Positions 6,493-35,205 of a DNA stretch of 64,000 nucleotides are shown here, piece after piece. The position numbers were made by a program, and so were the translations under genes. Below the pieces are notes generated by a model. It saw only the letters and a program-made list of their open reading frames with translations. It did no database searches and was not told the DNA's origin. Origin of the DNA: Cenococcum geophilum (taxonomy: Eukaryota); the NCBI GenBank assembly GCA_050273025.1, contig CP158635.1, positions 13,330,001-13,394,000 of the forward strand. Direction: 5' to 3'. Within the stretch, counting starts at the first letter, position 1, and each line of letters begins with the position of its first letter.

Positions 6493-8798
6493 GCCTATTA
6501 GGATATACTAAAGATGCGAGTAGCTAGAGCTTAAAGAAAAATCTAAGACAAGAAGAAGCTTAATATAATAACTTAAGCACGAGATAACGTAATTTAGGGT
6601 ACTATATTACTGCTATACGGCGACAAATTCTATGCAAAAAATAAGCAGGTAACCTGTATTTAGAGGCTAATCTATAATCGCATTAATATTATCCTTATTA
6701 TATAAACTGGCTTTAGTAAAAGCCTTATTATACAAGTAATTTTAATCCTTTATAAAAATACTATATTGCTAATATTTCTTCCTCTAAATAAGATTGCAAA
6801 AGAGCAAGTTTAAAAGGTTAATTAAATTGGTGGTAATGCGCTACTCCTTAACGCCGACGTTAAGGATATAGATAAAGCGCTTAAGAATGCAAGAGCCGGC
6901 CTATATATTTATATCTTTATTAGTCCTAAGCTTACTAGTACACCATCTTTCCGAGATTTACTTAAAGACCCTAAGTTTAAGAAGTAATTGGCCTTAGTCG
7001 CTGTTAATAAAGCTTATCTTGTTATATAATAGGGCAAGAAGTTTTGCCCCAAGTATGCGCAGCTATGCTATATACGCAATCTAATTAGAAGCTTAGTTCT
7101 ATAGTTTACCTATTCTATAACTTTTAATCCGGAAACGTTAGAAACGGTAAAGAAGTCCTTAGGCTTTAATAACACCAATATATACCTTAAGTAGACTTCT
7201 ATTTCCCGTAGAGAGCTTGTCTTTCGTCTTAGCTAAATACTAAAGGATATAATTACTAAATATACCTCGCTTCGCTTCCTTCTTAATAAGGCTGTCAATC
7301 CTCTAACTATTAAAACATATATTAATCCTGCCGTCTTTTAGGGAGGGAGCCGCTTAGCTACTCCGCATAAGATTCTAAAGACTATTACATTCTTTAACAC
7401 TAGAGTCTAAGCTATAGAGGCGCATAAAAGCATATCTAAGTACCTACAGTAGCTATATTTAGCTTAATATACTAAGAATATCACCCGCTTAATTATGGCC
7501 GTATTCCATTAAACAACCTTATTATTTAGCAAGAAGTTAATACTAGATAAGTTTAAGAAACTAGCAGAATCTTCTAAGATTTAAATTATTTTTGCTATAG
7601 AGGCTATTAGGATTAGTGTTAATCTTCTAGACGTCTATAGAGTGGTTATATATGTAATACCGGCGCTTAAATAACATTTCTCTTTTCTTCTACAGCGTGG
7701 TAGTTAAGCCGGTCGCAATGGTAGAAGGGCTAAAGTAATCTTTTTATTTAAATACTGGTGCTTTAGTAAATAAGACCTACTCCTATAGCTAAAGCCGAAG
7801 GTAGTATACCGTTTAAATTCTCGCCGACAGTAATAGTCTTACGCACTATTATTCTACCCCTTTTCTACCTCTTAGCCATTACCATCACGCGGATCCCAAT
7901 TACCGTTAGTTAATTCTATAAACTCGGACGACTTATTAGCCAGCGACACTATCTAGTTAAAGTAGGGAGGTAAAAAGGAAAACAAGTAGAAGCGTATAGA
8001 GATAAGAGATAAGTTTTTCCAGCTATGTAACGATTATAAGTATATTAAAGAAACACTATATAAGTATTTCGCCGAGCTTAACGCTTTAATTGCTGCCAAT
8101 ACTAATAAAGGCTCCTGCTGTAGTCACTATAATAACTCCCTTTAGTTAAGAACGCCCAAACGTAAAATATATAATAAAAAGGGGGCAAATCTGGATGCCA
8201 AAAAGAATTATATCCTTAAGAGACTTTAGATATAGGCTTAGACATCAGCAGTACCTATAGCTATTAGTAGATCTACTCTATTTCCAATATATTACACTAT
8301 TGCCGTTCTATATACTATGCTATATTAAATAGCATATTAATTCCACCTAATTACTATATATGAACACCTTAATAACTATATAAACAAATAGGAGCACGCA
8401 GATCTACTATCTAAAAGTCTATAGCAGAAGCTGTGTACGGCCAGTCTTAAATATAATTATATACTACACCCTTCTTTATAGGGTATAGATGCGATATTTA
8501 GGATTTCTAGTATTAATCTAACGCTAAGCTAGAGTTAAACTTTATTAATTAACTCCCTGTTTAATACTGCTATATCTACCGCTATTACTAGTTAAGCTAT
8601 ATTAGTTGCTACCGTATCCGCTATATAACCGCGACTCTCTTTAAGCCTACCCCCGCGCCAGTCTCCTCTGCGCAATACTTAGGTACTATTACCTACAAAA
8701 TATAGCCCATTAAGCTTATAAAGCCTAAATATGCAATATATCTAGAATATACTAGATATAAGAAAGAGAAAGAGGTTTTAGTCATTGTCGCGGTTATA
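6493..8798 (+). pseudogene. RecQ-like superfamily 2 helicase, RIP-degraded (candidate AcademH helicase)
   Basis: De-RIPed motifs occur in order: TGFGKS (6706-6723), PL..IAKEQV, SPE, VAVDEAHLV..WG.KFRP.Y (~7000-7055), ATEAIGIGVNLPDV (~7593-7635), QRGGRAGR (7693-7716) and a Cys cluster (~8026-8130). The 5' end abuts the gypsy LTR; boundaries are approximate. Confidence 0.88.
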
Positions 8799-9229
8799 AA
8801 GGGAAGGTAAGTTATTACTATTCTAATAATATTTTTGCACCCTATATGTTCCGCTAAGCCCTATTACTAATAAGCTGTTTAATATATATATAGTAGTATA
8901 TAAGGAGCTTTGGCTTTATAACTAGATTAATATTACTGCTATTATAGGTAGTATAGAAGGGCAAAGCCCGACACTAAAAGATAATACTTAATTAAGTATT
9001 GTAAATATAAGAACGGAATAACTTAAGTTATACTAGAGAAGTCGTTAATTAATAGAGGGTAGAGGAGAAGTTATATTAAGGTAAGGTAAAGTTAAAACCT
9101 AAGCTCTTTCTAAAATATATATAACCCTAAGTCTTATATATGTAATAAAAAAACGAACCAAAATAACTAAGGGGCATTTAACACCACTATATTACCTCCC
9201 CTACCTAAAACGTTGTCCCCTAACGTTTC

Positions 9230-12200
9230 CTTATATCTCCCAAAGTGGGTAATAAATGCCCTAAAAAAGAAGACACCTTAACGCCTAATACTCCTCCAAC
9301 TTATCGAAAGCTGCCTATACTCCCTCCTTAATTATTGCCTCTACTTCTTCCGTATTATCCTTATCTATTATACCTTCTACTTTAAGTTCTGCACTCCTAT
9401 TATCCTACATATTAATATCTCTAGCTTAGAGGTTTAAAGATACTCTTTCTCTAACAGTATATATTTCTGCTTATATTTTCTTTTATAAGGGAGATTATAG
9501 AATACTAGAGTTAATTACCTACTCTCCTAAAGCAGCACCCCTTTCTGAAATTGGTAAAGGCGTTAGGCGGTATAATGCTGCTAGTTTATTAGTGTCTTCT
9601 AAGGTACTAATAACTTTTAATAATTGTTTAGGGGCAGTATCCCAGAGGCTATCTCCCTTAGGCTTACTTAGATCCTTTAATTTACGATTAATCTCTATAG
9701 GCACTACTTTGTTATTAAAGATATTAGGACTAAGGTTTAGAGCAGTAGTCCTAGCGCCTTAAGGCGTAATAGCCCTATTCTCGCCTTTAGTATAGCCTTT
9801 GGAACTATGCTTGGTTAACAAAGAAGCGCTAAAAGTTATACCCTCGTTTTCTGGATCTGAACTTAGGTCTTTAAGGTATTCTAAGTCATCTACGGGACGC
9901 CCATAGCCTTGTTCTTTTACTAAAAAGTAAGACCTTACCCTAAATACCTCTTATTTAAATTCCTTAAGCTCTTTAAAACTGTTACGAACAGCCTCAGTAA
10001 CACGCGCCCTATGTCTTTCCCAAAATGCTTCGTATTCATTATTTAAGGTAGAATTTAGAATTACCCGCTGTTTTGCCCTTACTTAAGGATTATCTTATAA
10101 AAGTCTTCCAACTAAAGCATTTAAAAGGGCACTCTTTGCCTGCAGTTATATATAGGCTGGGAATTTATATAAAGGAATACTAGTAATAGGTTCGCTAGTA
10201 GGAGTTAAAACCGGGGGAAGACTAGTTAGATTTATCTATATAACCTCCTACTAGCTCTTAAGCCTAGGGATTTCTAATTTCCTAGTATTTGGTAGGATTG
10301 CGATTAAGTTTAGAGTAACAATTAAGCGGCTTAATGTTGCTTAAGATGCTCCTTATGTAATAGTAGCTTTTATAAACCGTACTTCTTTAGTTTTTAACGC
10401 AATAGGCATCTAGTTAAGCTTAAACCTCTTAGCATTAGCCCTAGTCCAGGCCGTCTCTATATTCTTAATACGCCCCCTACTATTAAGTTCTCCGCGCTTT
10501 TAAAGTAAATCTACCTATTCTGGTATATACTGATGCATTCTAGGTAGGAGTTCTGCATAAGACTAACTCCCTTCCTTAACTAAGGAAATACAAGAATAAA
10601 GCTAGCTATCTCTAGAATTTGGCCCTCCTTCGCGTACCTGGAGAAGATTAATTTCTAAGTTCCGTTTTTTAGGAAGATGGCTATTAAGAAACCGGAGCGC
10701 GTAGCTTAGATATGTAATGAAATGAGTAGTATTATTAGTGCGTAAAGCTATAGTGTGTCTATAGTGCTCTAGATCTATATAAACTACCTATTATAGTAAG
10801 GAATAATATATAGTCTGGAGGATATCATCTTTCTCTTCCCTAGTAGTCTTTCGTAAATGGTGTGCGTATATATTAAACTCTTCCTTAAAAATACCTAGAA
10901 TTCCAACGTCTTCCTACTATTTAAATAAATTGGCGTGGTGGATTCTGAGCAGGTCCTATTTAAGTTCCCCTTTTAAGCCTAATATAAGCTTTTTTAATCC
11001 TACGCGGTCTACTAGATAATTGCTAGGCTATATAGTAGAATAAGCGTAAATTCCGAGGTTATTATTTATATACTTTAGGCGACTATTCTTTTTAAACTAG
11101 AAATAGGAGCTTTTAGCTATCTAGAGAATATTAACAGTATTATAGTTCTTAAAGACTAAGTGGATTTATAAATATAAATTAGTAGAAGAAACGCTAGTAT
11201 CTAATCCTAATAACCCTGCCATTTTCTAAAGATATATCTAGCATAACGCGCGGACTTCTGTTCTATTTCCTTGCCAGGCTGTAATAAATTAGTGTAAAAT
11301 AGAAAAGATACTATCTTTTAGCTCTTTCTTGGAATTAAGGGCCTTAATTAATTCAGCTAGCGTTTTAGAATAATACAAGTATTTTATTTTCCGCTTCGGC
11401 TATACTTTTACAACAATCACCTCTTCTTTAGCAATTATTGTTGCTTTTTCCTTCCGCCTATTAGCTCTACCAGAAGCTAGAGGCTCCGTAGGTCCTATCT
11501 TTAACTTTTTTCTTAGGGATTTCTTAGAAGCTTTCTTAGCCCTACGTTTCTATAGGGAGCTAGCGACAAGGTTATCCTCTAAAGACGTAAATTTATTAGA
11601 TTTGGAGTCTTCTCCTTACGCTTTAGGTACCTTGCCTCTAAATAGAAACGAGCTACACAGCATTCTTACGTTTAAGCCTTTAACCTCCTTAAAAGGTAAT
11701 AGTAGAGGTGCCGGAGCAACTGGCTCTAGTGCAGATTTCTCTTTAGTTTTAATAGTTAAGGCTAGCACTAAAAGCTTATAGCCTTAGCTTAGATAACAAA
11801 CGAGCTTCTATTTCTTAATTAACTCCTTATTAACTACCGATCTGAATTTATAGGCGGTAAGAAAGTCTAAGGGTATTAGGTATAGGGTCCTTAAGATCCT
11901 AACCTTTAAGAGTTCTAGGCGGCTTAGTATTATATTATTAATTATTTCTAATATATCTTTCTTAGAGATCTAACTTTTTTTTACCTAATTAATAAAGATA
12001 TAGATACTTTTTAGTGTATAATACGTGTAGAAGAGCTTATAGGGACCTTCTAAAAGTTCCTCTCCCTACTCCTTTTTAATTGTATTTCACACCGCCTTAA
12101 TCTTATTAATCTTATAGGTAATCTTAGAGAGCTTTTTAATGTCCGCAAAGGCGTTTTCCTAATCTTTATTTCCCAAATTTCCCTTAAGCTTATTATCCTT

Positions 12201-12467
12201 CTTAATCTTAACCATTGTATTTTTCGCAGCCTTAACTACATTATGCTCCTGGTTTATAATAGCCTATATTAAACCATAATAGATATTTACGCGCTAATTA
12301 ACTGGGTGGCTTTAGGCGGCCCTAAGAATAACCTCTATTATTTGCGCCTTTCCTTAGTATATAAGGGCCATTAACCGGATAGTAGAAGGCAGAGGCGCGG
12401 GAGGCAGAGGCATAGGAGGTAGAGGCGGCGGCTTTCCTTTTAAGCGGAGTTCCATGGTTCTAGACAT
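9230..12467 (-). pseudogene. Unknown ~1000-aa protein, copy A; Pro-rich N-terminus and a possible degenerate PhyH/2OG-Fe(II) dioxygenase-like central domain
   Basis: ATG at 12467 gives MSRTMELR.KGKPPPLPPMPLPPAP. One long frame is broken by RIP-type stops. The central region reads LFEWW...EEFDMYAHHLRK...SLLQQAV.MDPEHY...ALR...YPSYA...CISL.EE...ELLPGMH...EVRF. The 3' end is approximate and the domain call is unverified. Confidence 0.6.
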
Positions 12468-12671
12468 TTTTATAGTAATATTTCGTATGCGTAACGGGCG
12501 TATAGGTAGTATTTTAAGACAAGAGTTATAATAGTGTTTTCTTAACGTGAGAGAAAAGTAAATAGGTATATATAACTAAATAAGACGAGATAACAAGAAA
12601 TCGAAATAAAGGCCTTATAGTATTTTTTAGAAAAAGGTAAATTAAAAAGGACTGTTATGTGAATTATTAAT

Positions 12672-12734
12672 ATATTAAGGAACTTTAACCGGCGGTCAAA
12701 GTTATTTAATTAGTTAGATTTTCCTTGCCAAGAC
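12672..12734. promoter_or_regulatory. Palindromic ~60-bp motif (AACTTT[G/A]ACC-N3-GGT[C/T]AAAGTT plus conserved flank), about 200 bp upstream of the cassette gene ATG
   Basis: Hairpin at 12681-12703. Further copies at 31066-31088, 28839-28861 and 21-43. A regulatory role is inferred only from position. Confidence 0.4.
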
Positions 12735-12869
12735 TTTTCCATAATAATAACATTAGTTAGTACTAAAAATTGACTTTAACCTCTAATATGCTTAACCAAG
12801 GTTTCTTAAAGTAAGTAGCTCTTCTCTTAACTTAAAAGGAAATAAAAATGCTAAATTAAAAATTATAGA

Positions 12870-14680
12870 GCGTGAAAATATAAAATACTTATAAGAGATA
12901 GTTACTAGTAATAAGGATAAAAGGAAGAAGACTATGCATAAAGTTATTCTTTATAAGAGCAGTTATTAAGACTAAGGATTTAGAACTAGCTTTAAAGAAG
13001 TAAACTCTTTTCCTAATTACTTATGGCAGTAAGGTAGGAGTATAGTAGAAGACTCTTAGTCTTTAAGAATGCTAGCTATTATAGTGCCAAGTATTCCTTA
13101 GATAAGCCTTACTTATAATTACTTTACGCGTTCGTTATAGAGATAAAGAGAAAAAAGAGAAAGAGTTGCTGCTTATAGTAATAGGTGTCCTAAGTAACGG
13201 CTTGCCTATAAAAGGATCTTTATAGAAGACCGTCTCTTAGTAGAGCTATAATCCTTAAGACGTAATAAGATTATAATATAATTAGAAGGGAGAAACGCAT
13301 ATAAAGAATAGGTAGAATTAACTATAACTATAATATAATCTTGGTTAATTACTATTTATAAAGGCTTTCTCTCTTACTTCTTTCCTTCTGCTTTCTTTCC
13401 TTAAAAGGGTTTAATTAAGCTTAGCTTGTATAATCTTTATACTAATAGAGTAGTACGGCGCTATACCGGTATAGTAGGAAACTGGCTGTTTATCTTTTAG
13501 GAAGCTTAAAGGAACTCTTTTAATAAGTAGTGGCGATTAAGTTGCTTAAATAAGAGGGCAGGAGGACTTTTATAGATAAGAACTCGGCTAATTCTTCCTA
13601 GAGATTACCTTTTCTCTACCTACGCTACGGCCTCCTCCTTAAGTGCCTCCTCTTCTGTAGGGACCTCTTCTATATTATGTTACTTTTATTTATATAGCCT
13701 TCCAGTCTAACTTCCTTAAGATTTTATATAAGGAACCGTTTCAACCTATTCCTATATAGATTGCCTCTTATTTTAATACTATTAAGTTTATAGAACCCTT
13801 TTTCTAATACCATTTTAATCCGGAAGGGACCCTGCTATTTTAGCTGTAGCTTTTGCCACCGCGATATATCTTTTGCCTTCTTTGCATCCTATACTAGTAT
13901 AAGCCCCCTAGACTTAAGCTTGCCCTTATAGGTATTCTCTATTAGCTAGATAATAGCGGCGCATCCTCTCCTAAGCTTCTTTGTTATTTATCTCTTATTA
14001 CTTAAACTATTTCATTCTTAGAATAATTAACTCTTCTATTATTTTTACCTTATTCTATAGAAGTGTCTGCTATATAGGAAGGTAGAGCTTAATTAGGGGT
14101 ATATGTTCTTATCTATAGAGTATTTAAGCTAGTGTTATTCCCGTTATTACCTTAACCGTTATTTAGTCAGCCTAAAGCGCTTTTATTAGATTCTATACCT
14201 AGTCGCCTCCGTACTTCGCTAACGCTACTACTAGATGCTAATATTCTCTCTTAACTAGGCCTTGTTCTTATAGATAGTAGGCTAATACAACTACTTAATA
14301 AATCCTATATGTTTTTGCGAGAATAGTAACTACATCCTTATTCTCTAGTCCTCTGTTAATAGAGAGTTATCTAAACACTCCCTATCTTAGATAACCTCTT
14401 CTTATAGAAATTTCGCTACTGCTTTAGATGTTGCATTTATTAGAGCTCTTGCCTCTAGCTAGCCTAAAAGGTACTCTTTAGCTACCACCAGATACTGCTT
14501 TCCCGATTTAGCCGTTGGCGTATAGATAATATCCATTAAGGCCTGTTCCTAAAGGGCAGCCGTCTAAGTTAGATATAAGGCTTCCTCCGTGGAGGTAGTG
14601 GAGAAAGTAGTAGAAGCTATAGTGGAAGCTAAGGAAGAGGAGTAGATTTAAGAATCTCATTAAGAATATTATTGAAGTTA
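12870..14680 (-). pseudogene. Unknown low-complexity (S/T-rich start, K/E/R-rich) gene relic, copy A
   Basis: Coding-like minus-strand frame; its 3' part is duplicated at ~31290-32043. No family recognised and boundaries are approximate. Confidence 0.35.
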
Positions 14681-17600
14681 AACTAAGTATCTAATATTTT
14701 AATAAGCTTATAGGTAAAACTATAGGTTAATTAAATCTAGCTGCTTTTTAAAAGGGAAGGTAATATATAGACACTAATCTAATTATAGCAGTAAATAATA
14801 GAGAGCTAGTATAGAAGGGCAAAGCCTAATACTAAAAGATAATACTTAATTAAGCATTATAAGGGGAATAGAACTAGATAAGTTACGCTAGAAAGGTAGA
14901 AGAATAACTAAAGGGTAAGTTGGATTTTTTTTGGGATGAGGTTAAAGCCTAGGTTGTTTTTATAATATATATAACCCTAAGCCCCCTATACGTAATAAGA
15001 AATAAACTAAAATAACTAAAGAGCGTTCCATACTACTATATTACTACCCCTACCTAAAACGTTATCCCCTAACGTTTCTTTATAGACCCTATTTAGTAGG
15101 TAAGGAACGCTTAAGGATAAAAAAAAATAACCTAATACCTAGTACACCTTTAACTCCTCTAAAGCTGCCTACACCCCTTCCCTATTTATCGCCTCTGTTC
15201 CATATTATCTACGCCTTCCGCCTTAAGCTTTGCATTTATATTATCCTATATATTAATGACACTAACCTAGGGTTTTAAAGACACCTTTTTACGGACAGTA
15301 TTTATTTCCGCTTGTATTGTCTTCTATATAGGAGGTTAGAGAACACTGGAATTAATTATCTATTCTTCTAAAGCAGTACCCTTTTTTGAAATTGGTGAAG
15401 GCGTTGGGCGGTGTAATATTGCTGGCTTATTAATATTCTCTAAAGCATTAATAAATGCCGGTGAATGTTTAGAAGTAGCATTTCGGAAGCTATCTTCTTT
15501 AAGCTTACTTATATCCTTTAGCTCTCGGTCGATTTCTATAGGCGCTACCTTATTATTAAATATATTAGGACTAAGGTTTAGCGCAGCAGTCCTAGCGCCT
15601 TAAGGTGTAATAGCCCTAGCCTCGCCTTTAGAATAGCCTTTGGAACTATAATCGGTTAGCGGGGGAGCGCTAAAAGTTATACTAGCTGGGTTATATTTGT
15701 ATTCTAGATCCAAAACTAAGTCTTTAGGATATTCTAGGTCATCTATAGGACGCTTACGCCCTTATTCTTTTGCTAAAAAGTAAAACTTTACCCTAAATAC
15801 CTCCCGCTTAAATTCCTTTAGCTCTTTAAAGCTCTTATAAATAGCCTTAGTAATACACTCCTATGTCTTTCCTAAAATACTTTATATTTATTATTTAATA
15901 AAGGATCTAGGATTAACTATTACTCTCTTCTTACTTAAGGGTCGTCCTATAAAAGTCTTTTAACTAAAGTATTTAAAATAGTGCTCTTTACCTATAGCTG
16001 TATATAGGCCGGAAACTTATATAGAGGAGCGTTAGAAATAGGTTTGCTAGTAGGAGTTAAAACTAGGGGAAAAGCGTCTAGATTTATCTATATAACGGCC
16101 TGATAGCTCTTAAGCCTAGGAATCTTTAATCTCTTAGTATTTAGTAGGATTACGATTAAGTTTAGTGTAATAATTAAGCGACTTAATGTTGCTTAAGAGG
16201 ATCCTTATGCAATAGTAGCTTTTATAAACCGCACTTTACTAGTCCTTAACGTAATGGGCATCTAGTTAAGCTTAAACTTCTTAGCATTAGCTTTAGTCTA
16301 GGTAGTTTCCATATTCTTAATATGCCCTTTACTATTAAGTTCCCTACGTTCTTAAAGTAAGCCTACCTATTCCGGTATATACTAATATATACTAGGTAGG
16401 AACTCTATATAAGACTAACTCCCCTTATTAATTAAGGAGATATAAGAATAAAGCTAGCTTTCTCCAGAATTTGGCCCTCCTTTATGCACTTATAGAAGGT
16501 TAATTTCTAAGTTCCGCTTTTTAAGGAGATGGCTACTAAGGAACTGGAGTGTATAGCTTGGATATGTAATAAAACGAGTAGCGCTATTGGCGCGTAAAGC
16601 CACTGTGTGCCGGTAGTGCTCTAGATCTATCTAAACTGCCTACTATAGTAGAGAATGGCATATAGTCCGAAGGATACCGCTATTTCCCTCTCTAGCGGTT
16701 TTATGTAAATGATGCGCATATATATTAAACTCCTCTTTAAAAATATCTAGAATCCTAGTATCTTTTTACCATTTAAATAAATCGGCCTAGTGGATTCTAA
16801 GTAAGTCCTATTTTATTTCCCCTTTTAAGCCTAATATAAGCTTCCTTAACCCTATATAATCTACTTAATAATTACTAGGTCGTATAGTAGAATAAGCGTA
16901 AATCCTAAGACCATCGTTTGCATACTTAGGACGACTATCCCTTTTAAACCAAAAATAAGAGCTTTTGGCTGTCCGGAGAATATTAATAGCATTATAGTTC
17001 TTAGAGACTAAGTGAATTCGTAAATATAAATTTATAGAGGAAGTACTGGCATCTAGTCCTAGCAATCCTACTATTTTCTAAAGATATATCCAGTATAGCG
17101 CGTGGACTTCTGTCCTATTTCCTTGCCAGGTTATAATAAACTATTATAAGACGGAAGAGACACCGCCTTCTAGTTCTTTCTTTAAATTAAGAGCCTTTAT
17201 TAATTTAACTAGCGTTTTAGAATAGCATAAGCATTTTATTTTTTATTTTGGCCGTAGTTTCCTAATAATCACCTCTTTATTAGCTTTAGCAATTATAGCT
17301 GCTTTTCCCTTTTGTTTATTAGCTTCACTAAAAGCTAAAGGTTCCGTAAGTCCTATTTTTAGCTTTTTTTTAGGAGATTTCTTAGAAGCTTTTCTAGCCT
17401 TATGTTTCTATAAGGAGCTAGCAACAAAGATATCCTCTAAAGACGTAGATTTATTAGATTTAGAGTTCTCTTTATTAGCTTTAGGAACCTTACCTCTAAA
17501 TAGAAACGTACTACGCAGCATTTTTGTGTTTAAGCCTTTAACCTCTTTAAAAGGTACTAATAGAGGTCCTAGAGTAACTGGCTCTAGTATAAATCCCTTT

Positions 17601-22575: not shown

Positions 22576-25500
22576 GTTTATAGTATCTTTAATTTGCGCC
22601 CCGTCGCGATCACTAATTCCCTATACCCTAGCCAATTAACCTCCGCCTTAGAGCAATCGCGACCTATACGCGCCTCTGCTAAAACCAACACGTCCCTAGT
22701 ACAGTTTTAGAACAATCCTTAGTTTTTACCTAGCGCCTAAATAGGCGACACTAATAACGCCAAAATAGCCGAAACCTAGAACCCCTACGACGTTTTTGTA
22801 GACCTATTTATAGAGATATACCCTAATATTACGTGGACAATTTGCCGCTCCCTACTGTACCCTAAGACCTTTAAGCCCAATAAAGCTTACCTTACCCTTA
22901 TTAACTATACCAATGAGTTCCTTAATAATATTAAAGTAGGACTATAGTATATATATAACACAAACACCGCCAATAAAAAAGCTAATAAAAACCTTAGTGC
23001 CCTTATTGCTTCCTAGACAGGAACTATTAACTCCTAGGTAGAGACTATTACCGTTCTAAAATAATTAACCCCTATAATAACGGTAGTAACCTAGCAGAAA
23101 AAACGGAAATCTAAAGACCCGCTAATATTTAGCAGAAAAGGCACCCCGCTAGAACGATAAGCTAATTTTAAGACCTAGTATATTAAGATTAAGGGAGTCT
23201 TTAACCGGGACTGGGACTACTTTAACATAGTTTAGTCCCAGATCCTTTATATCTTGGATATGCTAGAGGATAAGGCCTATAAGTTTATTAAGTAGGGCCT
23301 AGAGCTTATACATAAGAACCTAAATAATATATCTATGTGGAAATGGCCTACTAAGGAAAATATACTTAAAAACCTTACTGCCTACTATAAGGTCCTTAAT
23401 ATAACCCAGGTTGTAAAGAATAAGCTTAACTATTTCCCCTAAGGCGAGCATAATTACTGGTCCTAAAAGGGAGAGCTTAATAAGCTAATGGTTCGCGCTA
23501 AAAAGATAGATAAATAGAAGGTGGATCTACTTTAAAAGTTTATCTCTCTAAAGATAGAAGAGCTGGTACTTGGACTGGCCTATAAAATTAATAATAGCGA
23601 CTATATAGGTTGGAGTAAGCAGATGGATATATTCGCTAAGAACCTCGCGAACTATGCACACTAAGCTAACCTTAAGAAGAACGCTAACTACTGCCTACCT
23701 GCCTAAGCCACTGCCCCTATATTAACCCTAACCCTAGTAGTAACTAGAGAACCTATAGACCTTAATAGAATCTTAAATATAGAGCGTAAGTACCGCGTTA
23801 ATAATAGACTATGTTTTACCTATAGCCTACCCAGCCACTAGAAGGATGCCTATAACCCTACTAAAATAGTAAACTTAGTTCTAATACTACCCTATTAAAT
23901 AACGCGAACAAATAACTGCGGACGTGGTAACTATAAAGTCTATTATAGACGCGGCAACCGCGGAGCCTATTATAGCCGCGGCGGATAACCCCCCCCCCTT
24001 TAACCCTATGGCTTAGTTACTTTAAACTATGCCCTATATAGGAGCCCAACCTGTTAATAACGCCTAGCATTAGCGACTTTACGCTAGCGAATATAAACAC
24101 GGCTATATTATTAGTAAGGTATTGTCTTTCTATACCCTAACTAAAATAGAGATAAACACCGCCAGCTAGATAGACACTAGACCGCCCTGCTAAGACAGCC
24201 CTATACCCTAGTCGTTAAAAGGCAGACTCTTAAACTAAGTCGCGCTTAAGGGTCTAAACCATATAAGGAGGAAGACGAGAAGATTAGGTCCCTATTACTA
24301 GATTAATTAGTCCTTTCTATTAGTAAACTACTACTTAATCTTAGATTAGCAAACAGTAATAAAAAATTAATCCTTATTTAAACCTAACTCTTTTTATTAC
24401 ATAACCTATACCCCTAAGTTTATATTAATACAGTAAGCCTAGTAGACTTTAGTAGTACTGTAATAGCATTTACTAACGCAGAGTCTATTATAAGAAAGTA
24501 TAACGTTATAACTAAGAAGCTGCTAGCACCTAGGCTACTATGCCTTATAGATAGTATCCTAACTTCACTTATTACGGACTACTTTACTACCTAAATATTA
24601 ATCGGCCTCTATACTAAAGCCATACTCTTTTTTATTACCAAACTCTCGCCTACTACCCTAATTATCCTAGGTATACCCTAGCTTTAGAAGCACGAGCCCT
24701 GTCCTAGCTTTAGGAAACTTAAAATCCGCTTTAACTTAGACTACTACTCTAGGCACTGCCTCCCAAAGGGGATAGCCAACGTTAGTAAGGACGCCCTATA
24801 TGGATACTTAGTACTACTAAGCCTAGTGCCTAGGACTATATATAAAGCCCTAATAGTAAAAGACATTCCTAATAAAGGGGAGCTTGTATAGCTGCAAAGA
24901 AATAAGATAGTAGAAGACTGGACTAACCTAGCACTTAAGACTAAAATAATGGGCTAGCTAGCCCTGCCGAGACCAAGGAAGAAGGTTTACTTTACGCCGC
25001 TACTACTAAGAAACCAACCCTAACCTAGGCACTATTTAAACCCTAGCCGCCTAGCCTAATACCTAGAACTAAGCTATATGCCATATACGCACACTATAGC
25101 TCGCGTTATAGTAAGGACTGGCTATAGAACTACCAAGACCTAAATAATAGAAACCGCGCTACTATAACGCCTAACCTCACACCTATCTCCCGCGCGTACC
25201 GTATAGGGCTGCCGCCTTATTTCCGCCCCCCCGGGCTAACTAAGCTGTGCTAGCCCAGCCGTAGCACTAAAGAGCTAGATACGCCCTAACCTAAACGATA
25301 TTAAATACACCCGTACTGTTAATTTTACCCAGTTCTATAAATAAAAAGACGTAAAGGTAATAAGGATCTATATAGCGGAGCTAGTAGAACTAGTTAAATA
25401 AGATAAGTACTAATAGCTGCTTAAAGAGCTGCCTATAGGCCTAATAGAAGTACTAAACCTATTAAAAAGGTCTTTCTACCGGCTAGTAGAAGGCGACTAT

Positions 25501-28500
25501 ATAATAAAGGAAGCCCATAAAGCGCTTCCCCCCTATTTCTATAACTTTCTTAAGATAAATCTAAAAACTAAACCCAAGCTTTTACGTCGGAAGATAGTCG
25601 ACACTAATGTTAAAAAATTCCTAAAAGGTAAACTAGGATTGACCTATGAAGATATTCTATAATACTTATTAAAGGAGTTTAGTAAATATATTAAGCACTT
25701 CTTTCCTAAAAACGTAGATAAGCTACCCCTTTACCGACCATAGGACTATAAAATTAAGATTACCCCCAGAAACTAGGCCCCATACTATAAAAATAGACTA
25801 CTCTCACCTACTAAACTTAGGTGTGTAAAAAAGTGGATTAATAAAATACTGAATAAGGGTTTTATCCGTAAATCGACCTTACTAGCTATTATACCACTCT
25901 TCCTTACTACTAAGCCTAGCGGCGGTATACGAATCTGCTATAACTATTAAGGCCTAAATACAGTCACTATTAAGAATTAATACCTACTGCTACTAATCCG
26001 CGAGACACTTGACGCACTTTATAGCGCCAAGTACTTTACTAAACTTAATATAATTGCTGTATTTAACCGGATCCGGATTACGGAGGGCTATAAATAGCTT
26101 ATAGCATTTATTACCCAGTTCGGACTCTATAAGATACTAGTTATACTATTTAGCCTCTATAACATACCCGCTATATTCTAAAACTATATTAACCATATTC
26201 TATATAACGCCCTTAATAACTACTATACTACCTACCTTAATAATATCCTTGTCTTTTCTAAAACATATATTAAGTATACTAAGTATATAAATAAAGTTAT
26301 CTAAAGACTTAGCAATGCTGGACTTTAAATTAATATTAATAAGTCTAAGTTCTACTTTACTAAAATAAAATACCTTGGCTTAATTATCTTAACTAATAGT
26401 ATAACTATAGACCCTAAGAAGATATAGGCCTTACAGGAATAGAAGGACCCGATATTAATTAAAGAACTATAACAATTTCTTGGCTTCGCGAACTTCTACT
26501 AACAATTTATCTAAGGCTACTCTACTATTGCTATACCTATAATAAAACTTCTAAAGAAGGATATTGGATGGCTATAGGGACTAGAATAAGCTAAATTATT
26601 TAAGGCCTTTAAGGGAGCCTTTACTTTAGCACTAGTACTAGCATACTATAACTACACGAAGAAAATAGTGGTAGAGATAGATATATTAAATTAGGCTTCC
26701 GGCGAAGTCCTTTCCCAATATAATAATAACGGAAAATTAAGACTGGTTGCATTCTTCTCTATAAAGCACTCCACGCCAAAATATAACTACGAGATCTATA
26801 ATAAAGAACTTCTAGCTATTGTTAAGGCTTTAGAGGAATGGCGTCCTAAGCTATAAGGGACTAAGGAGCTGTTTGAAATTATTACCGACTATAAGAACCT
26901 ACAGATGTTTATAACTACTAAGTAGCTAAACTAGCGCTAAGTCCGGTAGGCAGAGTTCCTTTTATAGTTTAACTTTGTAATTATATATAGACCTAGTAGT
27001 AAAGCCACGCTCCCTAATACCCTAAGCTAGCTACTAGGAATAAGGCCTAAGGATGCTAATAATAAACACCTCCGCCACCGAGCCTAAGTCATTATACTAC
27101 CCCAGAAAGTTAACCCTATAATCTTAGAAGAATTACTATATAAGTCCCGTAACTTTAATAACGTAGAGTTTATAGCCGCTTTAGACCCTAAAATAGCCGA
27201 AAAGTTATTAAATAAGTTAATCTAGCTGGGATACTAGGAGAATAAACTCGCAAGAGATATAGTAGCAGCCCTGCGTAATTAGAAAGCTTACTATTAGCTA
27301 AAGAAAATTAGGAAATTACTCTATTGCGATAAGTTAGAATATAGTATTATTAATGGATAGATCTACTTCCGCTAACGTCTCTTTATCCCTAACGCCCTAG
27401 ACCTCTACCTAAAAGTTACCCATTGCTCTTATAGCAGCGGCCCCACTAGTTACCCTAGCTGGGTTAAGACTCTTAACCTCTTAAACTAAATATACTGGTA
27501 GCCAAGAATCTCCTAGTTTATGGCTACCTTTATTAAAGACTATGCCCTATGCTTTCGTACTAAAACCCCCCGTTTTGCTCTACCTAGTTTTCTAAAGCTA
27601 CTAGAATTACCTACCTACCCGTAAACTAATATCTTAATTAACTATATTATAACGCTACTAATATGCTAATGCTACGGTAAGGCATATAAATATATCCTTA
27701 TTATTGTGGACCGCCTAACTAAAATATAATACCTTATTTTAGTAACAGGACTCTTAATAGAGGAGTTAGTTAATAACTTTGTTAATAACGTATATAAGCT
27801 CTATAGTGTACTAAGCACGATTATCTCTAATCACGGTATATAATTTGTTAGCGACTTCTAGCGACGACTAAGTAAACGCCTTAAGATAACCTTATAATTA
27901 AGCTTAGCCTAGTACCTAAAAATAAACAGCTAAACTAAAATTATTAACGCCGCCGTAAATAAATACCTTTATGCTTTTATTAGCTTTATATAGGACGACT
28001 AGGTTAACTACCTACCGCTTACTAAGTTTGCTATAAATAACTAAGTTAATAAAAGTATAGGCATCTTCCCGTTTTTTATAAACTATAGCTTTAACCCTTA
28101 CCTTAGAATTAAGCCTACTAGCCCCTACCTACTAATACTATTAGTATAAGTAAAGAAGGAGTTTTTCCGCGTAGACTCTATGGCTAACCGCTTTAAGCAG
28201 ATATTAATATAGCTTAAGGCCCTAGCCCGGATTTTATAGTAACGCTATAAAGATAATGCTAATACCTATAGGGATAAGAGCGTGTTATTCTATAAAGGTA
28301 ATATAGTTATAGTTAGCTTAGAAAATATAAAGATAAATAGACCTAAGAAGAAATGGGATAATAAATGGGACGGCCTGTACCCCGTTCTCGTAGTATACTA
28401 AGGGGCAGTTATAGTAGACCTTCTAAACTACATCTAAGTAAATAAATCCTTTTATATATCTAAGGTCCGCCTTTAGGCTGCTAAAGAGATCTCTGGCTAA

Positions 28501-29117
28501 GCAAATATTAATACTATAGAGCGCTATAATATATAAGGACGAGTGGTAGAGAAAGATAATAACGGCAATATAGAAGATAAATGAGAGTTTAAGAAAATCC
28601 TTAATATATATAACGAAGACCCCTAGGGCCTAACTTATGAGATTAAATGGAAATATTATAAGGATATAACCTGGTAGCTAGAGGAAGACCTAAAGGGTTA
28701 TAAATAAGCTGTATAGCGCTTTTATAAGTAACACCCTAAGAAGCTAGAACCCCTAGACTAGGTATAAGATAAGGAAAAGTTACGCTAAGGTTGCGGCCGA
28801 CCACCGCATTAAAATTTGTGGTGGTTGAGATGTTATAAAACTTTAACTAGTGGTTAAAGTTGTCTAATTAGCTAAATTCTTACTAAGAAATGCTATATAG
28901 ACCGATTTGGGTGGCGGTGTGGAGTTCTGCCGACCTTATTTACTAAACTAACTAATTAGGATTTTCCATGCCCGGTATAGAAAATCGCTATTAGCTCGGT
29001 TAAGGGCGGTGAGTAGAACTAATATCTTTGCGGTAGAAAATAGACAACCCCGTATACTGCCTATTTTTAAGTTATTTATTTGGTTTAGGGACCAAACCAT
29101 CTAGGGGAGAGGAGTAC

Positions 29118-29304
29118 TGTTATGGCACTGACCTAATGCATACTGTTTTATACTATCTTGTACTATTCCCTACTATTAGCTAGCCCACTACTAGCGACTT
29201 GGCGGCCGGCCCTACTATTTATATATAATACCCCCTTTCCACCTTCTTCCCCTCTTTATACTATAACGTAGTTATTCAGTCTACTTTATTACAGCACTGT
29301 GACA
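29118..29304 (+). repeat. 3' LTR, gypsy family A
   Basis: 187 bp, preceded by the PPT and followed by the TSD. Confidence 0.96.
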
Positions 29305-32049
29305 TCTAGGATTGTTAATTCTATATAGGGCCTATGCTTTTAAAGGTTACGCCTACTATATATAGCAGTTGTCTAGCCAACCATAATATATAGATCTAGT
29401 ATTTGGGCCATTGGAGAAACTAAGAAGGGCCCCCCTAAATTACTTCTTAAACTACTTTAAAAGGTCTAAACAGCCTACCTTTAGAGTATTATAGGCGGGT
29501 ATAAGCGAACGGCTATAGTACTACTTAAGAAGGAATCCAATATTCCCCCCCTATAGTTATATATTAAAGCCGCTGCAATATAAAGGACGTAAAATAAACA
29601 TAACTCTAATGTTATAAAGTATATTAAGACACGCCTAAGTAAACTATAGAGGGACCCTAGGGTGCCCCATAGGAGAATAAACCAATAACCCTAAAGTAGG
29701 GAAGAGATATTAGAGAAACAGGTAAAGAAAGTAGAAGAAGAATAGTACCGCTTTAGGGCCCAGGCCTATATAGAGGAGAAAGGGAGACGTGTAAGAGGTT
29801 AGTAAAGATAATAGTAAGATAGAGAAAGGAGCTAAAGTAAAACACGTAAGAATGCTAGGAAACTATCTACCGTAATATAATACTGGTTGGACCAACGCTA
29901 GAGAGGTAAATAGGAGTTAAAGGTATAGAGGCTGACTTAAGTAAGATAAACCTAAGCTATAGTATAGTTAATACTATGGGGGGTAAATACCTAAGGGCTC
30001 TAAGAAGGCCTAATAAAGGTAGAAAATATAATAGCAATACTTTTAAGAACAGGAATAATAGGACTAAAAGATTGGCTTTACTGGGTGGGTGTCCTAGTAG
30101 GTAGCCTAAGATGCAAATATGGCTGGCTAAGACAGACACTAAAATATATAATACTGCTATGCCCCCTACGCACCAATTGAGAAATAATGCTCTTAGTAGC
30201 TAGTATAGAGAACTATAATACACTGCTCTTAATATAAAAAGGCCGTAAGGCGGTTACCCAGTGGCTTATTAGTTAAAATGTGCTAAATTAGTTCTGGGTT
30301 ATAAGGGAAATGGTAATAAAAGGCAAGGGGGCGAGTAGTAGGTGCCCCCTAGTAACTCTACAGTAGTAGAGTAATAGTTTGTAATACTAGCGCGTCCGTA
30401 GGCTTGTTACGGTAGCAGTGGTTCCTAAGGAGGTTAAATAGTAAGGTAGTAGAGCACTATAGGTAACTTATAGGCGCTAAGTAGGCAAGTCCTAAAAGGC
30501 GGGGAGATGGATTACGGGGTTTTCTTATTTTTCTTAAATAGAGTTTTCTCCCTATATGTAAATAAGGAGTAGTCCGCGTGGGCCCAATAGGGATCCGAAT
30601 CGGACGTTAAGTAATAAATTATTATTATTATATTATGCTCCTGGTTTAAAATAACCTACGTTAAACTATAATAGATATTTATGCGCTGATTGACTAGGTG
30701 GCTTTAGGTAGCTTTAAGGATAACCTTTATTGTCTGCGCCTTTCCTTAGTATATAAGGGCTATTAACCGGATAGTAGGAGGTGGAGGCGTAGGAGGCAGA
30801 GGCGGCGGCCTTCCTTTTAAGCGGAGTTCTATAGTTCTAGGCATTTTTGCAGTAAAATTCCGCGTGCGTAATAGGCAATTTAAGAGAAGGGTAATAATAG
30901 TGCTTTTTAACGTAAAGAAAGGTAAACGGGCGCGTATAATTAAATGAGATAGGGTAACAGAATGACAGGATAATAGGATAACAGGAAGTTAAAATAAAGA
31001 TCTTGTGGTATTTACCAAAAAGGTGAATTAAAAGGGTCGTTATATGAAATCTTAAGATATTAAGGAACTTTAACCGCCGGTTAAAGTTATCTAATTAGTT
31101 AGATTTTCCTTGCTAAGACATTTACATAACAATAACTTTAACATTAACTATTTTTTAAAAGAATAAATAAGACTTAGATAATGCCTGTCTCTAACCTCTA
31201 ATATGCTTAACTAAGACTTCTTAAAGTAAAGTAGCTCTTCTCTTAACTTAAAAGGAAACGAAAATATTAATTCGAAAATTATAGAACGTAAAAATGTAAA
31301 ATACTTATAAGAGATAGTTATTAGTAATAAAGGTGGAAGGAAGAAGACCGCGTGTGTAGTTATTCCTTATAAGAGTAGTTGCCAAGATAGAGGATTTAAA
31401 ACCAGCTTTAAAGAGCTAAATTCTTTTCCTAATTCCTCGTGCCAGTGGGATAAGGTAGGAGTGTAGTAGAAGACTCTAATCCTTATAGTTGCTTTGCGTA
31501 TTTATTATAAAGGTAGAGAGAAGAAAGTAAATAAGTTGCTGCTTATAGTAATAGGTGTCTTAAGTAACAGCCTGTTTATAGAAGAATCTTTATAAAAGAC
31601 TACCTTTTTAGTAGGGTTATGTGATCCTTAAGATGCGGTAAGATTGTGGTGTAGTTAGAAAAAAGAGACGCTGCTATAGCCTCCTCTTTAGGTGCTTCTT
31701 CTTCTGTAAAGACTTCTTCTATATTATAGTTGCTTTTATTTATACGGTCTTCTGGTCTAATCCCCTTAGGATCTTGTATATAAAACCGTTTCGACCGATT
31801 CCTATATAGGGTGCCTCCTACTTTAGTGCTATTAAGGTCCTTAATTTTATAGAACCCTTTTTCTAATAACCTTTTAATCCGGAGGGGGCCCTGCCATTTT
31901 GGCTGTAGCTTTTACTATTGCGATATATCCTTTGCCTTTTTTGCATCCTATACCGGCATAAGCTCTCTAGGCTTAAGCTTACTTTTACGGGTATTCTTTG
32001 TCTTATTAAAGTATTCTTTATTGGCTAGATAATAGCCGCGCATATAATA

Positions 32050-34955
32050 CTAGAACTAGATAGGAAGTCTATAAGATTAGGTATTAAGTGCAGCTCTATT
32101 AAGTAAGGTATTAATTAGTGTTGTCTTAGGCTTATCTGCGTTAATATTGTTAAGGCCTTCTACTATAGGAATACGCCCTTGCAGCTTTGCATTAAAGCCA
32201 TTAATAAGCGAGTCGTAGTAAGCTGGTTGCTTTGGAATTCTTTGCTTTCTAGCTCTAGAAGGTTCTGATTGTGATAAGGCTGATTTAGAAGGTAGCTTTA
32301 TAGGCTGTCCTTCCTTTAAACCCCTAGAGAGCCTTTAGGTTCCAATATTAACAATATCCTTGCAGCTAAGGTGACTCTTTCATTCGCTAGGCCGCCTTGT
32401 GATAGTAGTTAATAGCTTAAGCGTAAGATGATATACATTAGTAGCTGCGTTAGCTGGCGTATGATATGTGCTGTTAAACTGGCTAAACGCGTCCTCTATA
32501 GCATACCGCAGCTCTAGGTAGTAACTAGCGGTAAGTAACACTTAAGTAAATAACTCTGTCACATTTAAACTAGTTCACCATCAGCCTTAAAGAAGAAGCT
32601 TAAGAATAAGGTTGTGATATTTATTAAGTCAATTTATCTTAAACTAACTATCTTGCTGGCCTCTATAATTAACCAACATGCTAGCAAGTAATAATCTTTA
32701 AAGGACTTAATCTGCGGCTTTAGTTATGAGCAATCTAGTAAGGTATAAAGCTAACTATGTATATTAACTCTTTATACTGCCAGTAAAGAGAAGATAGTAG
32801 TAAATAATCACCCGTTTAATAAGCCTAATATTAGCGTACTTAATAGCAAACTTTAATATAAGGTAGACCTCTATATCTTATATAAATTAAACATAGTTTT
32901 AGAATACCTTATTAACTAGTTTATTACTATAGGACCGTTAGCTGGGCAAGAAGAACTCCTCTTAAATACGCTGTAAGGTAGTAAGGAATCTTACTCTTAC
33001 TACTGCCGTTTTATTACCTCTTTTAATATCTTGTCCAGTAATCTAATTATTAACCCCCTTATTACCCTAGTCCTTAATATTTTAAGGAAAAAGACTAAGG
33101 AAGTAGGCAGTAATTCGGGCGTTAAAGGACTTAATTATGACCTCCTCTTTATAATGGAACGGCGTCCTATAACCCTAATACGCGCTAAGGTAGACCTTGC
33201 TATAATCTAACAATTTAAAGCAGTTGGATGGTCCGCCGTAAATGTCGTGTATTATATCTATATAGTTAGTTCGCTAATAGAACAATCTAGCCACAGGAAG
33301 AAACCATTTTAGCTATTTATAGTAACGCTCTTTAAGATAACGCTCTTGCTATATAGATTAGAGGAGGCCTATGGTCTTCTAATCGCCATTAATTAAGACT
33401 AATTTACTATTGTTAAAGGATCCTTCCTTATACCCCAGCTGGCCCTCTTAAAACCCGTATTCGCCGTTATTGCCACTAAATATATTCCTAAGAATACTAT
33501 ACGTGCCCTCTAGAGTGCCCTTATTCTCTAGAATTAGACCTAATGCAAAGTAGCGTAGCTTTCGTGGAAGGAGATAATCTATAATAGGCATATTGGGCCA
33601 GAAGTCTGCAACAATATTAAGCTCTTTAACTTTTGGTATTATATATATAATAGCCTTAGCAATCTAATATAACTAGTACTGTTCTGTATAGCTATCTGCC
33701 TAATTACTAGGATAATTAAAGATCACGCTATAAGTAAGCTATTCCGTAGGTTTAAGTATAGAAGTATAAAGACCGTTATATGGAAACTTAGGGTTAAGTA
33801 TAAGCTTAGAAGTAGTAGCGGAGAGGTGCTTATTAGTATTTAGTGTAGTCTTATATTAAACCCTTTTATTCTAGTTAAAGTTATTATATATAACCGTTAG
33901 CTGGTTCCGGTTCTTTAAAGTAGTTACCTTAATTATGCGCTATAAGAAAGTTACTATTTATTATACTAGCAATAACTAAGAAGCCTTAAGTGCGCGATCT
34001 ATAGCTAAAATACCTTAACTATACCCTCCGCTCGCAGTAACGGAGGCGTCTTATCTAAACCCTTAAGTATGGAAGTATATACCCTACTAACTTCCTCTAG
34101 TTCCTTTTGTATTTTAGTAAAACTGATATACGATATTATAACTCCTAACTTATAAAGAAGCGCAATACACCTTCTTTTAACACCTATATTGTGTAAATAA
34201 ACCCCTAAAGTAGTATGGAACTGGTAGCTAGCTTAAGGGGCTTATATGTTCGCTAGGATTGCGCACACCATAAAGAGCTTATTATAGTAAGGCGTGATAT
34301 TACGAGAATTAGTATATGGCCTTTGCTAAACTAAAGCTATAAGGAAGCTTTATAGCGTTAGAGCAAGGCACTATATATTAGCAGTAATCGTATTAAGCTT
34401 AAGCTTTTTAACTGGTTCTTTGGCGTTAAATTATTTAAGCCTGCTAGGAATAATAACTCTATTCTCTTTTTTTAGGCGTATAAGATCCTCTAACTCTTGC
34501 TCTATCTGCTTATATAGAGGTTCTTAATAGAGCCTTCTTAGCTGGCGATCACTATATACTATAAGCCGTTCCTTAACTTCTGGCTCTTTAAATATTGCCT
34601 TCTATAGCCTATTTATACGTCGCTCTGGCGTATTATAATTAAAAGGGCTAGAAGCGGTTATATAATACTTAATAAAAGTTATAATGCCCTAGCGGTGCTT
34701 ATACAGCTGTTCTAATATTAAGTTAACTCTTTCGCATTCTAAATAAAAGACTTATAGTCCTTAATTTTTATTTAAAGCTGGCTTATTGGTTTAGGTACTC
34801 TGGCTACGGTAGGAAGAGGGCGGCGGTAGTTGTGGGAGAGGTGCGGCTGCTATGACTTGGGGGCGTTAAGCGCAACAACGAGATAACAAATTGGAATTGG
34901 GCAAATTGGGCAACGTAGTCTTCTTTACTAGGTTTAATTTGGTAATTCTGGCCAT
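32050..34955 (-). pseudogene. Academ-type (DUF6589-like) DDE transposase, RIP-degraded
   Basis: Candidate ATG at 34955. De-RIPed motifs occur in order: YDNF...RV.H.T (~33890-33845), ENEGTLEGT (~33530-33500), GDQKT..LLRS (~33387), PVAGLFHW..N (~33298-33265), AIKYADIG (~32850) and LVN.RG...WF..D.LNEYHN (~32675-32610). This is the motif series I associate with fungal Academ/DUF6589 proteins. Confidence 0.78.
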
Positions 34956-35145
34956 CAGGAATAGCTTAGGGAGCTATAGAAGTTAAGATAATTTGGCTTA
35001 AAGTAGGTGTATATAGGCCTAAATGCCCCGCGCGGGACTAATAAAAATCCGAACCGTGTACTAGACCTTCTAACGAAGGTCTTACCAAAAGCGGCTAGCG
35101 GCTTGGCAAGGTAAGCCTTGGTAAGAAGGTCTGGGAACAAGACAA

Positions 35146-35205
35146 ACATTTATCCTATACATTTAAGATTAGTAAGCGCTTACTAAGTTACGCACGGGCC
35201 ACTAT
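35146..35205 (+). repeat. 60-bp terminal inverted repeat, left copy (contains the palindrome TTAGTAAGCGCTTACTAA)
   Basis: Reverse complement of 47930-47989 apart from C>T changes. Confidence 0.92.

Follow-up and report, generated by a model that had tools for sequence, protein, structure and literature searches.

A stretch of 64,000 nucleotides of the fungus Cenococcum geophilum (GenBank assembly GCA_050273025.1, contig CP158635.1, positions 13,330,001 to 13,394,000 of the + strand; this whole stretch is hereafter called the window, and its first letter is position 1) contains what we read as the remnant of a single AcademH-like DNA transposon, killed by repeat-induced point mutation (RIP), which reaches from beyond the left edge of the window to about 34.7-35.1 kb and holds two modules of about 5 kb, units A and B, as passengers. 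For this reading as a whole, the arguments on the two sides are about evenly poised. The identities of three genes (helicase, transposase and unit gene), their order and strands, the nested insertions, the RIP signature, and the misplacement of an earlier proposed right end are shown by the analysis. We infer with good confidence, from their neighbouring positions and from what is published on the composition of AcademH, that a RecQ-family helicase gene and an Academ-type transposase gene belonged to one element; that the modules travelled inside this element rather than inserting later is a near-even matter, tipped slightly to the negative side. The locus is one dead, RIP-mutated case without visible ends, and it is a lead, not a demonstration. 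Positions 6493 to 35204 had been the subject of an earlier note, made from the letters alone, which proposed there a large cargo-carrying AcademH-like element, a proposal that the analysis supports in part.

On this reading, the AcademH-like element would have moved by cut-and-paste through a DUF6589/Academ DDE transposase, aided by its own RecQ-family helicase. The two diverged modules would have stood between the converging helicase and transposase genes, in transposase orientation, each of them a passenger gene inside the transposon, like the TET/JBP genes in fungal DNA transposons, and not a multi-gene, Starship-like cargo. A gypsy retrotransposon later entered the 5' region of the helicase gene; a long interspersed nuclear element (LINE) entered unit B and then received a gypsy of its own; a Mutator-like element inserted just right of the transposase gene, followed by a long terminal repeat (LTR) element inside it; and all of this was mutated by RIP. 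With the LINE and the units taken out, the helicase and the transposase genes are convergent and about 1.6 kb apart.

Gene Recognition in RIP-Mutated DNA

The RIP-type AT-rich block spans position 1 to about 48010, with a GC content of about 0.33-0.40 and a composite RIP index of 1.0-1.4 in all the segments tested. Within 6493-35204, only two open frames reach at least 120 amino acids (aa), and all the genes there therefore have to be read through stops. Relic genes were translated in short pieces, with TAA and TAG read as Q and TGA as W, before being searched against Pfam and PDB. The window was also compared with itself both in nucleotides and in purine/pyrimidine coding, the latter being blind to RIP transitions. 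In comparisons with intact relatives, a codon was deemed RIP-incompatible if it could not be derived from the relative's residue by C to T or G to A changes. These relatives are named P0001 to P0010: P0001-P0003 are DUF6589 proteins, P0004-P0008 are relatives of the unit protein, and P0009 and P0010 are helicases.

The Transposase Relic and Its Link to Academ

The earlier note had described an Academ/DUF6589-like transposase relic on the - strand, converging with the helicase, and had suggested that the protein at 32-35 kb be run against DUF6589. This reading is supported: the relic matches Pfam DUF6589 (PF20231) at E = 1.5e-31 (110 bits, about 33711-32485, - strand), and, as set out below, the catalytic blocks of Academ are present in DUF6589 proteins. 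The reading frame stays protein-like up to about 34707, and P0002 maps to 33918-32083. P0001 is 76% identical to the relic, with 29 stops and 13 of 447 codons RIP-incompatible (2.9%), and it is multi-copy (9 member sequences). All three relatives carry PF20231, intact relatives scoring 8.5e-58 and 7e-61. In the Protein Atlas, P0002 is surrounded by DUF6589 clusters of cnidarians, arthropods, and Mucoromycota, a taxon spread typical of a transposon protein. The 3' end of the gene lies at most about 10 codons from the edge of unit B at 32043; following the frame past the unit B junction into the spacer and the helicase-side flank gave nothing recognisable.

For the comparison with Academ, we used the RNase H-like hidden Markov model (HMM) contained in Supplementary File S1 of Muszewska et al. 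2017 (PMC5751038; 465 states, 44 sequences), of which states 16-40, 169-245, and 424-455 (about 127 of the 465) were compared, as blocks and not as a full profile search. The HMM block v-l-t-G-D-Q (D being state 191), which sits at the second catalytic D, reads I-N-G-D-Q-K-T in the DUF6589 proteins; W-L-V-P-f-l-G-f-F-H (states 214-223) reads W-F-L-P-V-P-G-L-F-H; and l-l-S (430)...W (444)...D (450)-e-a-l-E (454) reads F-L-S-S...W...D-R-L-N-E. Among the states compared, the blocks come in the same order and with similar spacing (D to W, 23 states vs. 27 residues; D to E, 263 vs. 254), and the GDQ, W-x-x-P-x-x-G-x-F-H, and D-x3-E blocks are present in the transposase relic of the window. A two-block score computed from the emission rows of these blocks gave 27.9-29.6 bits with each of the three DUF6589 proteins, the maxima of the controls being 22.0 (145 other proteins) and 25.2 (1000 shuffles of P0002); the two scored blocks were picked after inspection, and the position of the E block was predicted before reading. 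Because of these ordered catalytic motifs common with the published Academ profile, we read the DUF6589 relic as an Academ transposase, an identification that is supported but not closed. A PDB sequence search with P0002 gave no match at E <= 10, and no statement equating the family with Academ was found in the literature searched by the names DUF6589 and PF20231.

The Helicase Relic

The earlier note had also recognised a RecQ helicase relic on the + strand, and the searches agree with it: in PDB, the best match of the relic is 4tmu (RecQ; E = 4.7e-9), and the RecQ family (RecQ, RecQ1, RecQ5, WRN) accounts for 29 of the 32 matches at E <= 1. The Pfam matches to Helicase_C (E = 7e-4) and DEAD (E = 1.2e-3) are both below the Pfam cut-offs. 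P0009 and P0010, two intact partial relatives found on three short contigs each, are 75-77% identical to the relic, with 4.9-6.1% RIP-incompatible codons and 17-18 stops; with P0009 as query, PDB returns RecQ at E = 1e-20, and the top 37 matches are all RecQ-family. The relic is RIP-mutated like a repeat, with a RIP index of 1.0. By eye, a stretch rich in Cys near 8000-8150 looks like the zinc-binding region of RecQ; Pfam does not report it.

The gypsy at 1-6492 is inserted at about codon 65 of this gene. Residues 1-59 of P0010 have no counterpart right of 6493 (tblastn), and only about 65 residues precede the helicase core in this gene; judging from these alignments, the missing 5' piece is short, about 65 codons, and is to be expected on the far side of the gypsy, left of the window. 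The earlier note had likewise placed both the helicase 5' end and the left end of the element there.

Two Diverged Copies of a One-Gene Unit

Units A and B form a direct repeat on the same strand, with 79-80% nucleotide identity and about 95% identity in purine/pyrimidine coding. What the earlier note had called a tandemly duplicated two-gene cassette thus stands as a direct repeat of two units, and is not confirmed on its other two points: only one gene per unit, encoding about 1050 aa, is detectable by homology, and the arrangement is not a simple tandem one, the two units belonging to two sublineages and being separated by a unique spacer of 842 bp. Likewise, the "several extra genes" are reduced to a single gene family, represented by two diverged copies. 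In the rest of each unit, ~1.5 kb, Pfam gave no match on either strand and tblastn with the relatives gave none; this upstream part is richer in indels, with a 324-bp gap in B. Positions 13299-13622 of unit A have no counterpart in B (junction 31671/31672): either A gained them by insertion or B lost them by deletion. In unit B, the gene runs over 30832-30626 and 18109-15189, with one frameshift near 15855, and residues 1-69 of P0004 map to 30832-30626. The left and right ends of the units are sharp and identical in A and B; inspection of the ends of both units gave neither a terminal inverted repeat (TIR) nor a target-site duplication (TSD).

The depth of the A-B split can be gauged against a pair of gypsy copies, 1-6492 and 28881-22389, which share 90% of their nucleotides and 99.9% in purine/pyrimidine coding and differ by 630 transitions vs. 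4 transversions, with 1 gap column. Between A and B, 772 transitions, 141 transversions, and 548 gap columns were counted over 4587 aligned bases, and 6-10% of their codon pairs contain a transversion. Each copy, moreover, has its own close intact relative. Compared with P0004, unit B has 20 RIP-incompatible codons out of 1027 (1.9%) and unit A 107 out of 1027 (10.4%); compared with P0008, the figures are 14 out of 627 for A (2.2%) and 61 out of 627 for B (9.7%). As the intact relative that is nearly identical once RIP changes are set aside is not the same for the two copies, the split is old and predates RIP; on these codon comparisons, A and B are old paralogues of two sublineages that are also intact elsewhere, and not a recent duplication. 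The few RIP-incompatible codons that separate the relics from their intact relatives (2.9% for P0001, 4.9-6.1% for P0009/P0010, 1.9-2.2% for the units) point to the same gene set, unmutated, in related genomes.

A simple tandem duplication of the unit was excluded because the spacer of 842 bp is present only once; neither coding revealed a second copy of it in the window, and it has no Pfam match. The contig that carries P0005, a member of a third sublineage, measures 5044 bp, to be compared with the 5016 bp of the unit. A Helitron-like nature of the unit was considered and rejected: there is a small hairpin near one end, but the ends are unlike consensus Helitron termini, and no Rep/helicase domain is present. 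As a side observation, a 58-bp stretch of the units (12666-12723 / 31052-31108) is about 97% like an internal piece of the gypsy copies (1-58 / 28824-28881) in purine/pyrimidine coding, which may be low complexity or a small shared fragment.

A Dioxygenase Fold without Its Metal Ligands

The intact relatives P0004-P0008 (658-1114 aa, 63-74% identical) comprise two entries named "hypothetical protein" and three unnamed ones, none with a Pfam domain; the unit protein had 0 matches in a PDB sequence search and no usable match in the Protein Atlas. A full HMMER search, in turn, collected 609 representative relatives (50% identity) at E <= 1e-3, of which 84 at E <= 1e-30, and the core common to them covers residues ~350-870. 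Pfam PhyH was found in 5 of the 42 relatives scanned (best E = 1e-8) and Tet_JBP in none. A 77-row family alignment conserves C-x-C...C-x-x-H, F-R-H-x-D-x-N, P-H-G-S-T, and R-R-T-x-L-P-W. The relatives of 9288-12455 listed as P0014-P0163 form a large family of ~700-1000 aa without a Pfam model of its own, in which C-x-C...C-x-x-H is combined with a PhyH-like core.

The AlphaFold model of the unit protein has a pLDDT above 90 over the core. For the fold of residues ~350-855 of P0004, Foldseek returned PhyH-class Fe/2-oxoglutarate (2OG) dioxygenases (TlxI, SnoN/SnoK, KanJ, PrhA, AusE, SyrB2) at E ~5e-7, with probability 1.0 and a target TM-score of 0.5-0.6; among the matches listed, all are Fe/2OG dioxygenases except the putative oxidoreductases 2csg and 7twe. 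As modelled, the unit protein combines a helical N-terminal domain, a zinc motif of the form CxC...CxxH, and the fold of PhyH-class Fe(II)/2OG dioxygenases.

The metal ligands H, D, and H and the 2OG-binding R are kept in at least 85% of the 77 aligned members. In P0004, the ligand positions are occupied by N, E, Q, and S-R-L (N-x-E, Q-G), and copy A of the window has the same N, E, and Q; none of the changes at ligand positions in the window sublineage is RIP-type. Because the metal ligands and the 2OG arginine are replaced by non-RIP changes, the unit protein of this sublineage is probably not an enzyme, and catalysis is unlikely.

Boundaries and Later Insertions

The coordinates of all the features are gathered in Table 1. 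Several of them are younger than the proposed element: neither the gypsy at 1-6492 nor the LINE with its nested gypsy is part of it. The latter insertion, which the earlier note had already removed from the element, is documented by a match of the LINE to RVT_1 (E = 2.7e-18, ~21541-22240, + strand), by the LTRs of the nested gypsy (22386-22594 and 29115-29320), and by a TSD of ~15 bp at 18096-18112 / 30627-30643; unit A runs uninterrupted through the matching site.

Table 1. Features of positions 1 to 48010 of the window.
Feature	Coordinates	Strand	Basis
Gypsy-type LTR retrotransposon, cut by the left edge of the window	1..6492	+	copy of 28881-22389; LTR copy 6306-6493
RecQ-family superfamily 2 (SF2) helicase gene relic	6493..8250 (3' limit approximate)	+	PDB RecQ match; relatives P0009/P0010
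RIP-mutated spacer, helicase 3' end to unit A	8251..8948		composite RIP index 0.96
Unit A, 5016 bp	8949..13964	-	gene relic ~12455-9288 (tblastn with P0004-P0008), plus ~1.5 kb upstream
Spacer between units, 842 bp	13965..14806		single occurrence; composite RIP index 1.22
Unit B, left part	14807..18112	-	codons ~65 to gene end; tblastn segments 18109-15857 and 15854-15189
LINE with nested gypsy	18113..30626 (LINE 18113-22385 and 29321-30626; gypsy 22386-29320)	+	RVT_1
Unit B, right part	30627..32043	-	first 65-69 codons and upstream region; matches 12235-13964 of unit A
Academ-type (DUF6589) DDE transposase gene relic, identification supported but not closed	32050..34707 (5' limit approximate)	-	PF20231 match; P0001
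RIP-mutated region upstream of transposase gene	34708..35086		composite RIP index 1.01
Mutator-like element	35087..48010	+	MULE PF10551, TIRs, candidate TSD; nested LTR retrotransposon 38340-47245

The right end of the element, which the earlier note had set at 35204, had to be given up, as it coincides with the inner limit of the left TIR belonging to a neighbouring Mutator-like element. An inverted repeat, 35145-35204 vs. 47923-47989, with weaker similarity outward to ~35087 / 48010 (60-118 bp), frames a relic of a Mutator-like (MULE) transposase (PF10551, E = 2.1e-6, just above the cut-off, ~36818-37040, + strand of 35205-38339) together with a nested LTR element, and is therefore the TIR of this Mutator-like element. 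A candidate 11-bp TSD (35076-35086 / 48011-48021) differs by transitions only; about 0.2 such matches are expected by chance, or about 3 over all the lengths tried, and it was kept as weak. A longer outer TIR (34955-35125 vs. 48010-48162), promising when aligned in purine/pyrimidine coding, was rejected, its score of 40.5 not being above that of shuffles (mean 44.4) or of real segments (mean 44.6, n = 128). The nested LTR element has 215-bp LTRs and a 5-bp TSD, ATAGC. Two palindromes were noticed in this part: one of ~118 bp at 37346-37463, which falls within the Mutator-like element, downstream of its MULE domain, has two 59-bp arms with GGCCGGCC at the centre, and is perfect in purine/pyrimidine coding; and one with a 7-bp stem, GACCTTC...GAAGGTC, at 35062-35080, beside the candidate TSD.

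Because 35087-48010 is a Mutator-like element, the end of the Academ-like element must be left of ~35086 or in the first few hundred bases past 48022; the true right end is probably in 34708-35086 or just past the Mutator-like insertion. Neither 34708-35086 nor the spacer 8251-8948 has a Pfam match, and neither is repeated elsewhere in the window. A search of the window for inverted repeats bounding the helicase and the transposase gave, near the proposed right end, only the TIR pair of the Mutator-like element, and elsewhere no candidate. The missing TIRs count against the coordinates proposed earlier, not against the AcademH family, the left end lying outside the window.

The right edge of the RIP block coincides with the right end of the Mutator-like element (~48010), beyond which the composite RIP index drops to 0.08 (48022-48800) and then, where genes begin, to -0.53. 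These are ordinary genes: a THADA/Trm732 homologue, a Vps5-like gene, a ZIP transporter, and a P450. The THADA/Trm732 homologue (48814-52372) consists of six consecutive + strand frames, is probably split by introns, and starts ~800 bp from the edge of the block.

Alternative Explanations

Several points weigh against one element with passengers. The window shows neither a terminus nor a TIR or TSD of the proposed element, whose left end is outside and whose right end was not found. The link to Academ is made of motif blocks chosen post hoc and not of a full profile search, and the AlphaFold2 model of P0002, built from a 4-row alignment, has a pLDDT of 33, too low to show an RNase H fold. That a RecQ-like helicase is convergent with the transposase in bona fide AcademH is a statement of the earlier note and not a result of this analysis. 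The sharp ends shared by the units, the different intact relative of each, and the 5044-bp contig of P0005 make up the pattern of an independent repeat. Finally, the 141 transversions and 548 gap columns between A and B, vs. 4 transversions in the gypsy pair, are difficult to reconcile with a long co-residence of both units within a single element if the genome is competent for RIP. A further point was listed on this side, a maximum-likelihood tree of the unit proteins that pairs A with B (100/100); as RIP hits the same sites in both copies and the composition was flagged as skewed, this pairing was judged unreliable either way and was not used.

The same tree is one of the few observations that speak for a doubling of the cassette in place, with divergence by RIP alone, together with the direct, same-strand orientation of the repeats and their 95% identity in purine/pyrimidine coding. 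Given the bias of the tree by common RIP changes, the spacer that was not duplicated, the transversions and gap columns far exceeding the 4 and 1 of the gypsy pair, and the different near-identical intact relative of each copy, this explanation is largely refuted and we regard it as highly improbable. Hardly more probable is a chance neighbourhood, in which the helicase and DUF6589 relics would have different origins, e.g., a host or subtelomeric RecQ-like gene beside a helicase-less Academ fragment. RecQ-like genes do exist outside transposons, no shared termini were seen, and the region piles up at least six other elements; on the other side, the helicase carries RIP mutations as a repeat does, its close relatives occur in several copies on short contigs, only ~65 residues precede its core, and a helicase gene converging directly on an Academ-type transposase gene corresponds to the gene content given for AcademH in PMC10799480.

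A more serious alternative, which we consider possible although short of an even chance, keeps the AcademH-like remains and takes the 5-kb units not as cargo but as later, independent insertions of a separate repeat family, self-moving or moved in trans. In its favour are the left and right ends, sharp and identical in both units, the proximity of B to P0004 (1.9% incompatible codons) and of A to P0008 (2.2%) when each is 9.7-10.4% away from the other's partner, the spacer that was not duplicated, the very large size of the protein family (609 representatives), and the P0005 contig, nearly as long as a unit, the size of a contig being an indirect clue only. Such a repeat would, however, have to move without any recognisable transposase, recombinase, reverse transcriptase, or Rep/helicase in the unit, whose sole protein is a dioxygenase fold without catalytic residues; it leaves no TSD or terminal structure; and it would take a coincidence for two insertions, both on one strand, to fall only 842 bp from each other when the target measures ~6.5 kb. 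The lack of termini is also shared by TET/JBP genes that, in PMC12730594, are nevertheless judged to be passengers. In a further reading that we find unlikely, the 5-kb unit, whose protein belongs to a family counting hundreds of members in fungi, would itself be a mobile module devoid of TIR and TSD, spreading alone or hopping between DNA transposons such as Academ; a non-catalytic passenger of this kind might be a decoy or a binder acting against genome defence.

Comparison with Known Systems

AcademH designates Academ transposons that encode a DEAD/Helicase_C helicase and occur at low copy in Ascomycota (PMC10799480), with a TSD of 9 or 10 bp according to PMC10045372. The locus described here resembles these elements, as far as those texts describe them, by the combination of an Academ-type DDE transposase with an SF2 helicase gene at one locus of a fungal host, and by helicase and transposase relatives that are multi-copy elsewhere. 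It differs by ~10.9 kb of extra DNA with two dioxygenase-fold genes between helicase and transposase, not described for AcademH in the literature consulted, by termini and a 9-10-bp TSD that are not visible here, and by genes that are all dead from RIP.

The closest parallel to the placement of the units is that of the TET/JBP genes carried by fungal DNA transposons (Kojima 2025, PMC12730594), which are located between the transposase and a second, opposite gene, in transposase orientation and without termini or TSD, and are judged to have been passively passed between transposon families; among their carrier lineages, Academ is not listed, and the word is absent from the text of that article. 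Set beside this description, the units have in common a 2OG-dioxygenase-fold gene, the same placement and orientation, and the lack of termini or TSD of their own, whereas the window protein is PhyH-class by Pfam and Foldseek, lacks the metal ligands, and is present in two diverged copies.

With PhyH-class Fe(II)/2OG dioxygenases themselves, the likeness lies in the fold of residues ~350-855 of P0004 and in the relatives that keep H-x-D...H and R-R-T; the differences are an identity of 8-18%, a length of ~1050 aa with an added helical N-domain and CxC...CxxH, and the replacement of H-x-D...H by N-x-E...Q in the window sublineage.

Starships, in turn, have a DUF3435 tyrosine-recombinase "captain" gene at one end. 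The resemblance to them is that of a fungal mobile element with genes beyond those for movement; here, in contrast, one gene family of ~5 kb occurs twice, instead of tens of kb of varied genes, and a DDE transposase would move the element. In line with the earlier note, which had argued for a mobilisation without a Starship-type recombinase, no DUF3435/tyrosine recombinase was detected in the frames scanned (6001-18200 and 30627-38339), where sensitivity is low on RIP-mutated DNA. These giant cargo elements are named in PMC12210899.

Significance

If one AcademH-like element did carry the units as passengers, the known carriage of dioxygenase genes by DNA transposons of fungi would be widened to the Academ superfamily, and also to a second class of dioxygenases, PhyH-like and not TET/JBP, here without catalytic residues; a catalytically dead passenger would then raise the question of its benefit to the transposon. 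Whichever reading is retained, the evidence that DUF6589 is the core of the Academ transposase, supported but not closed, would make Academ elements annotatable with a standard Pfam model.

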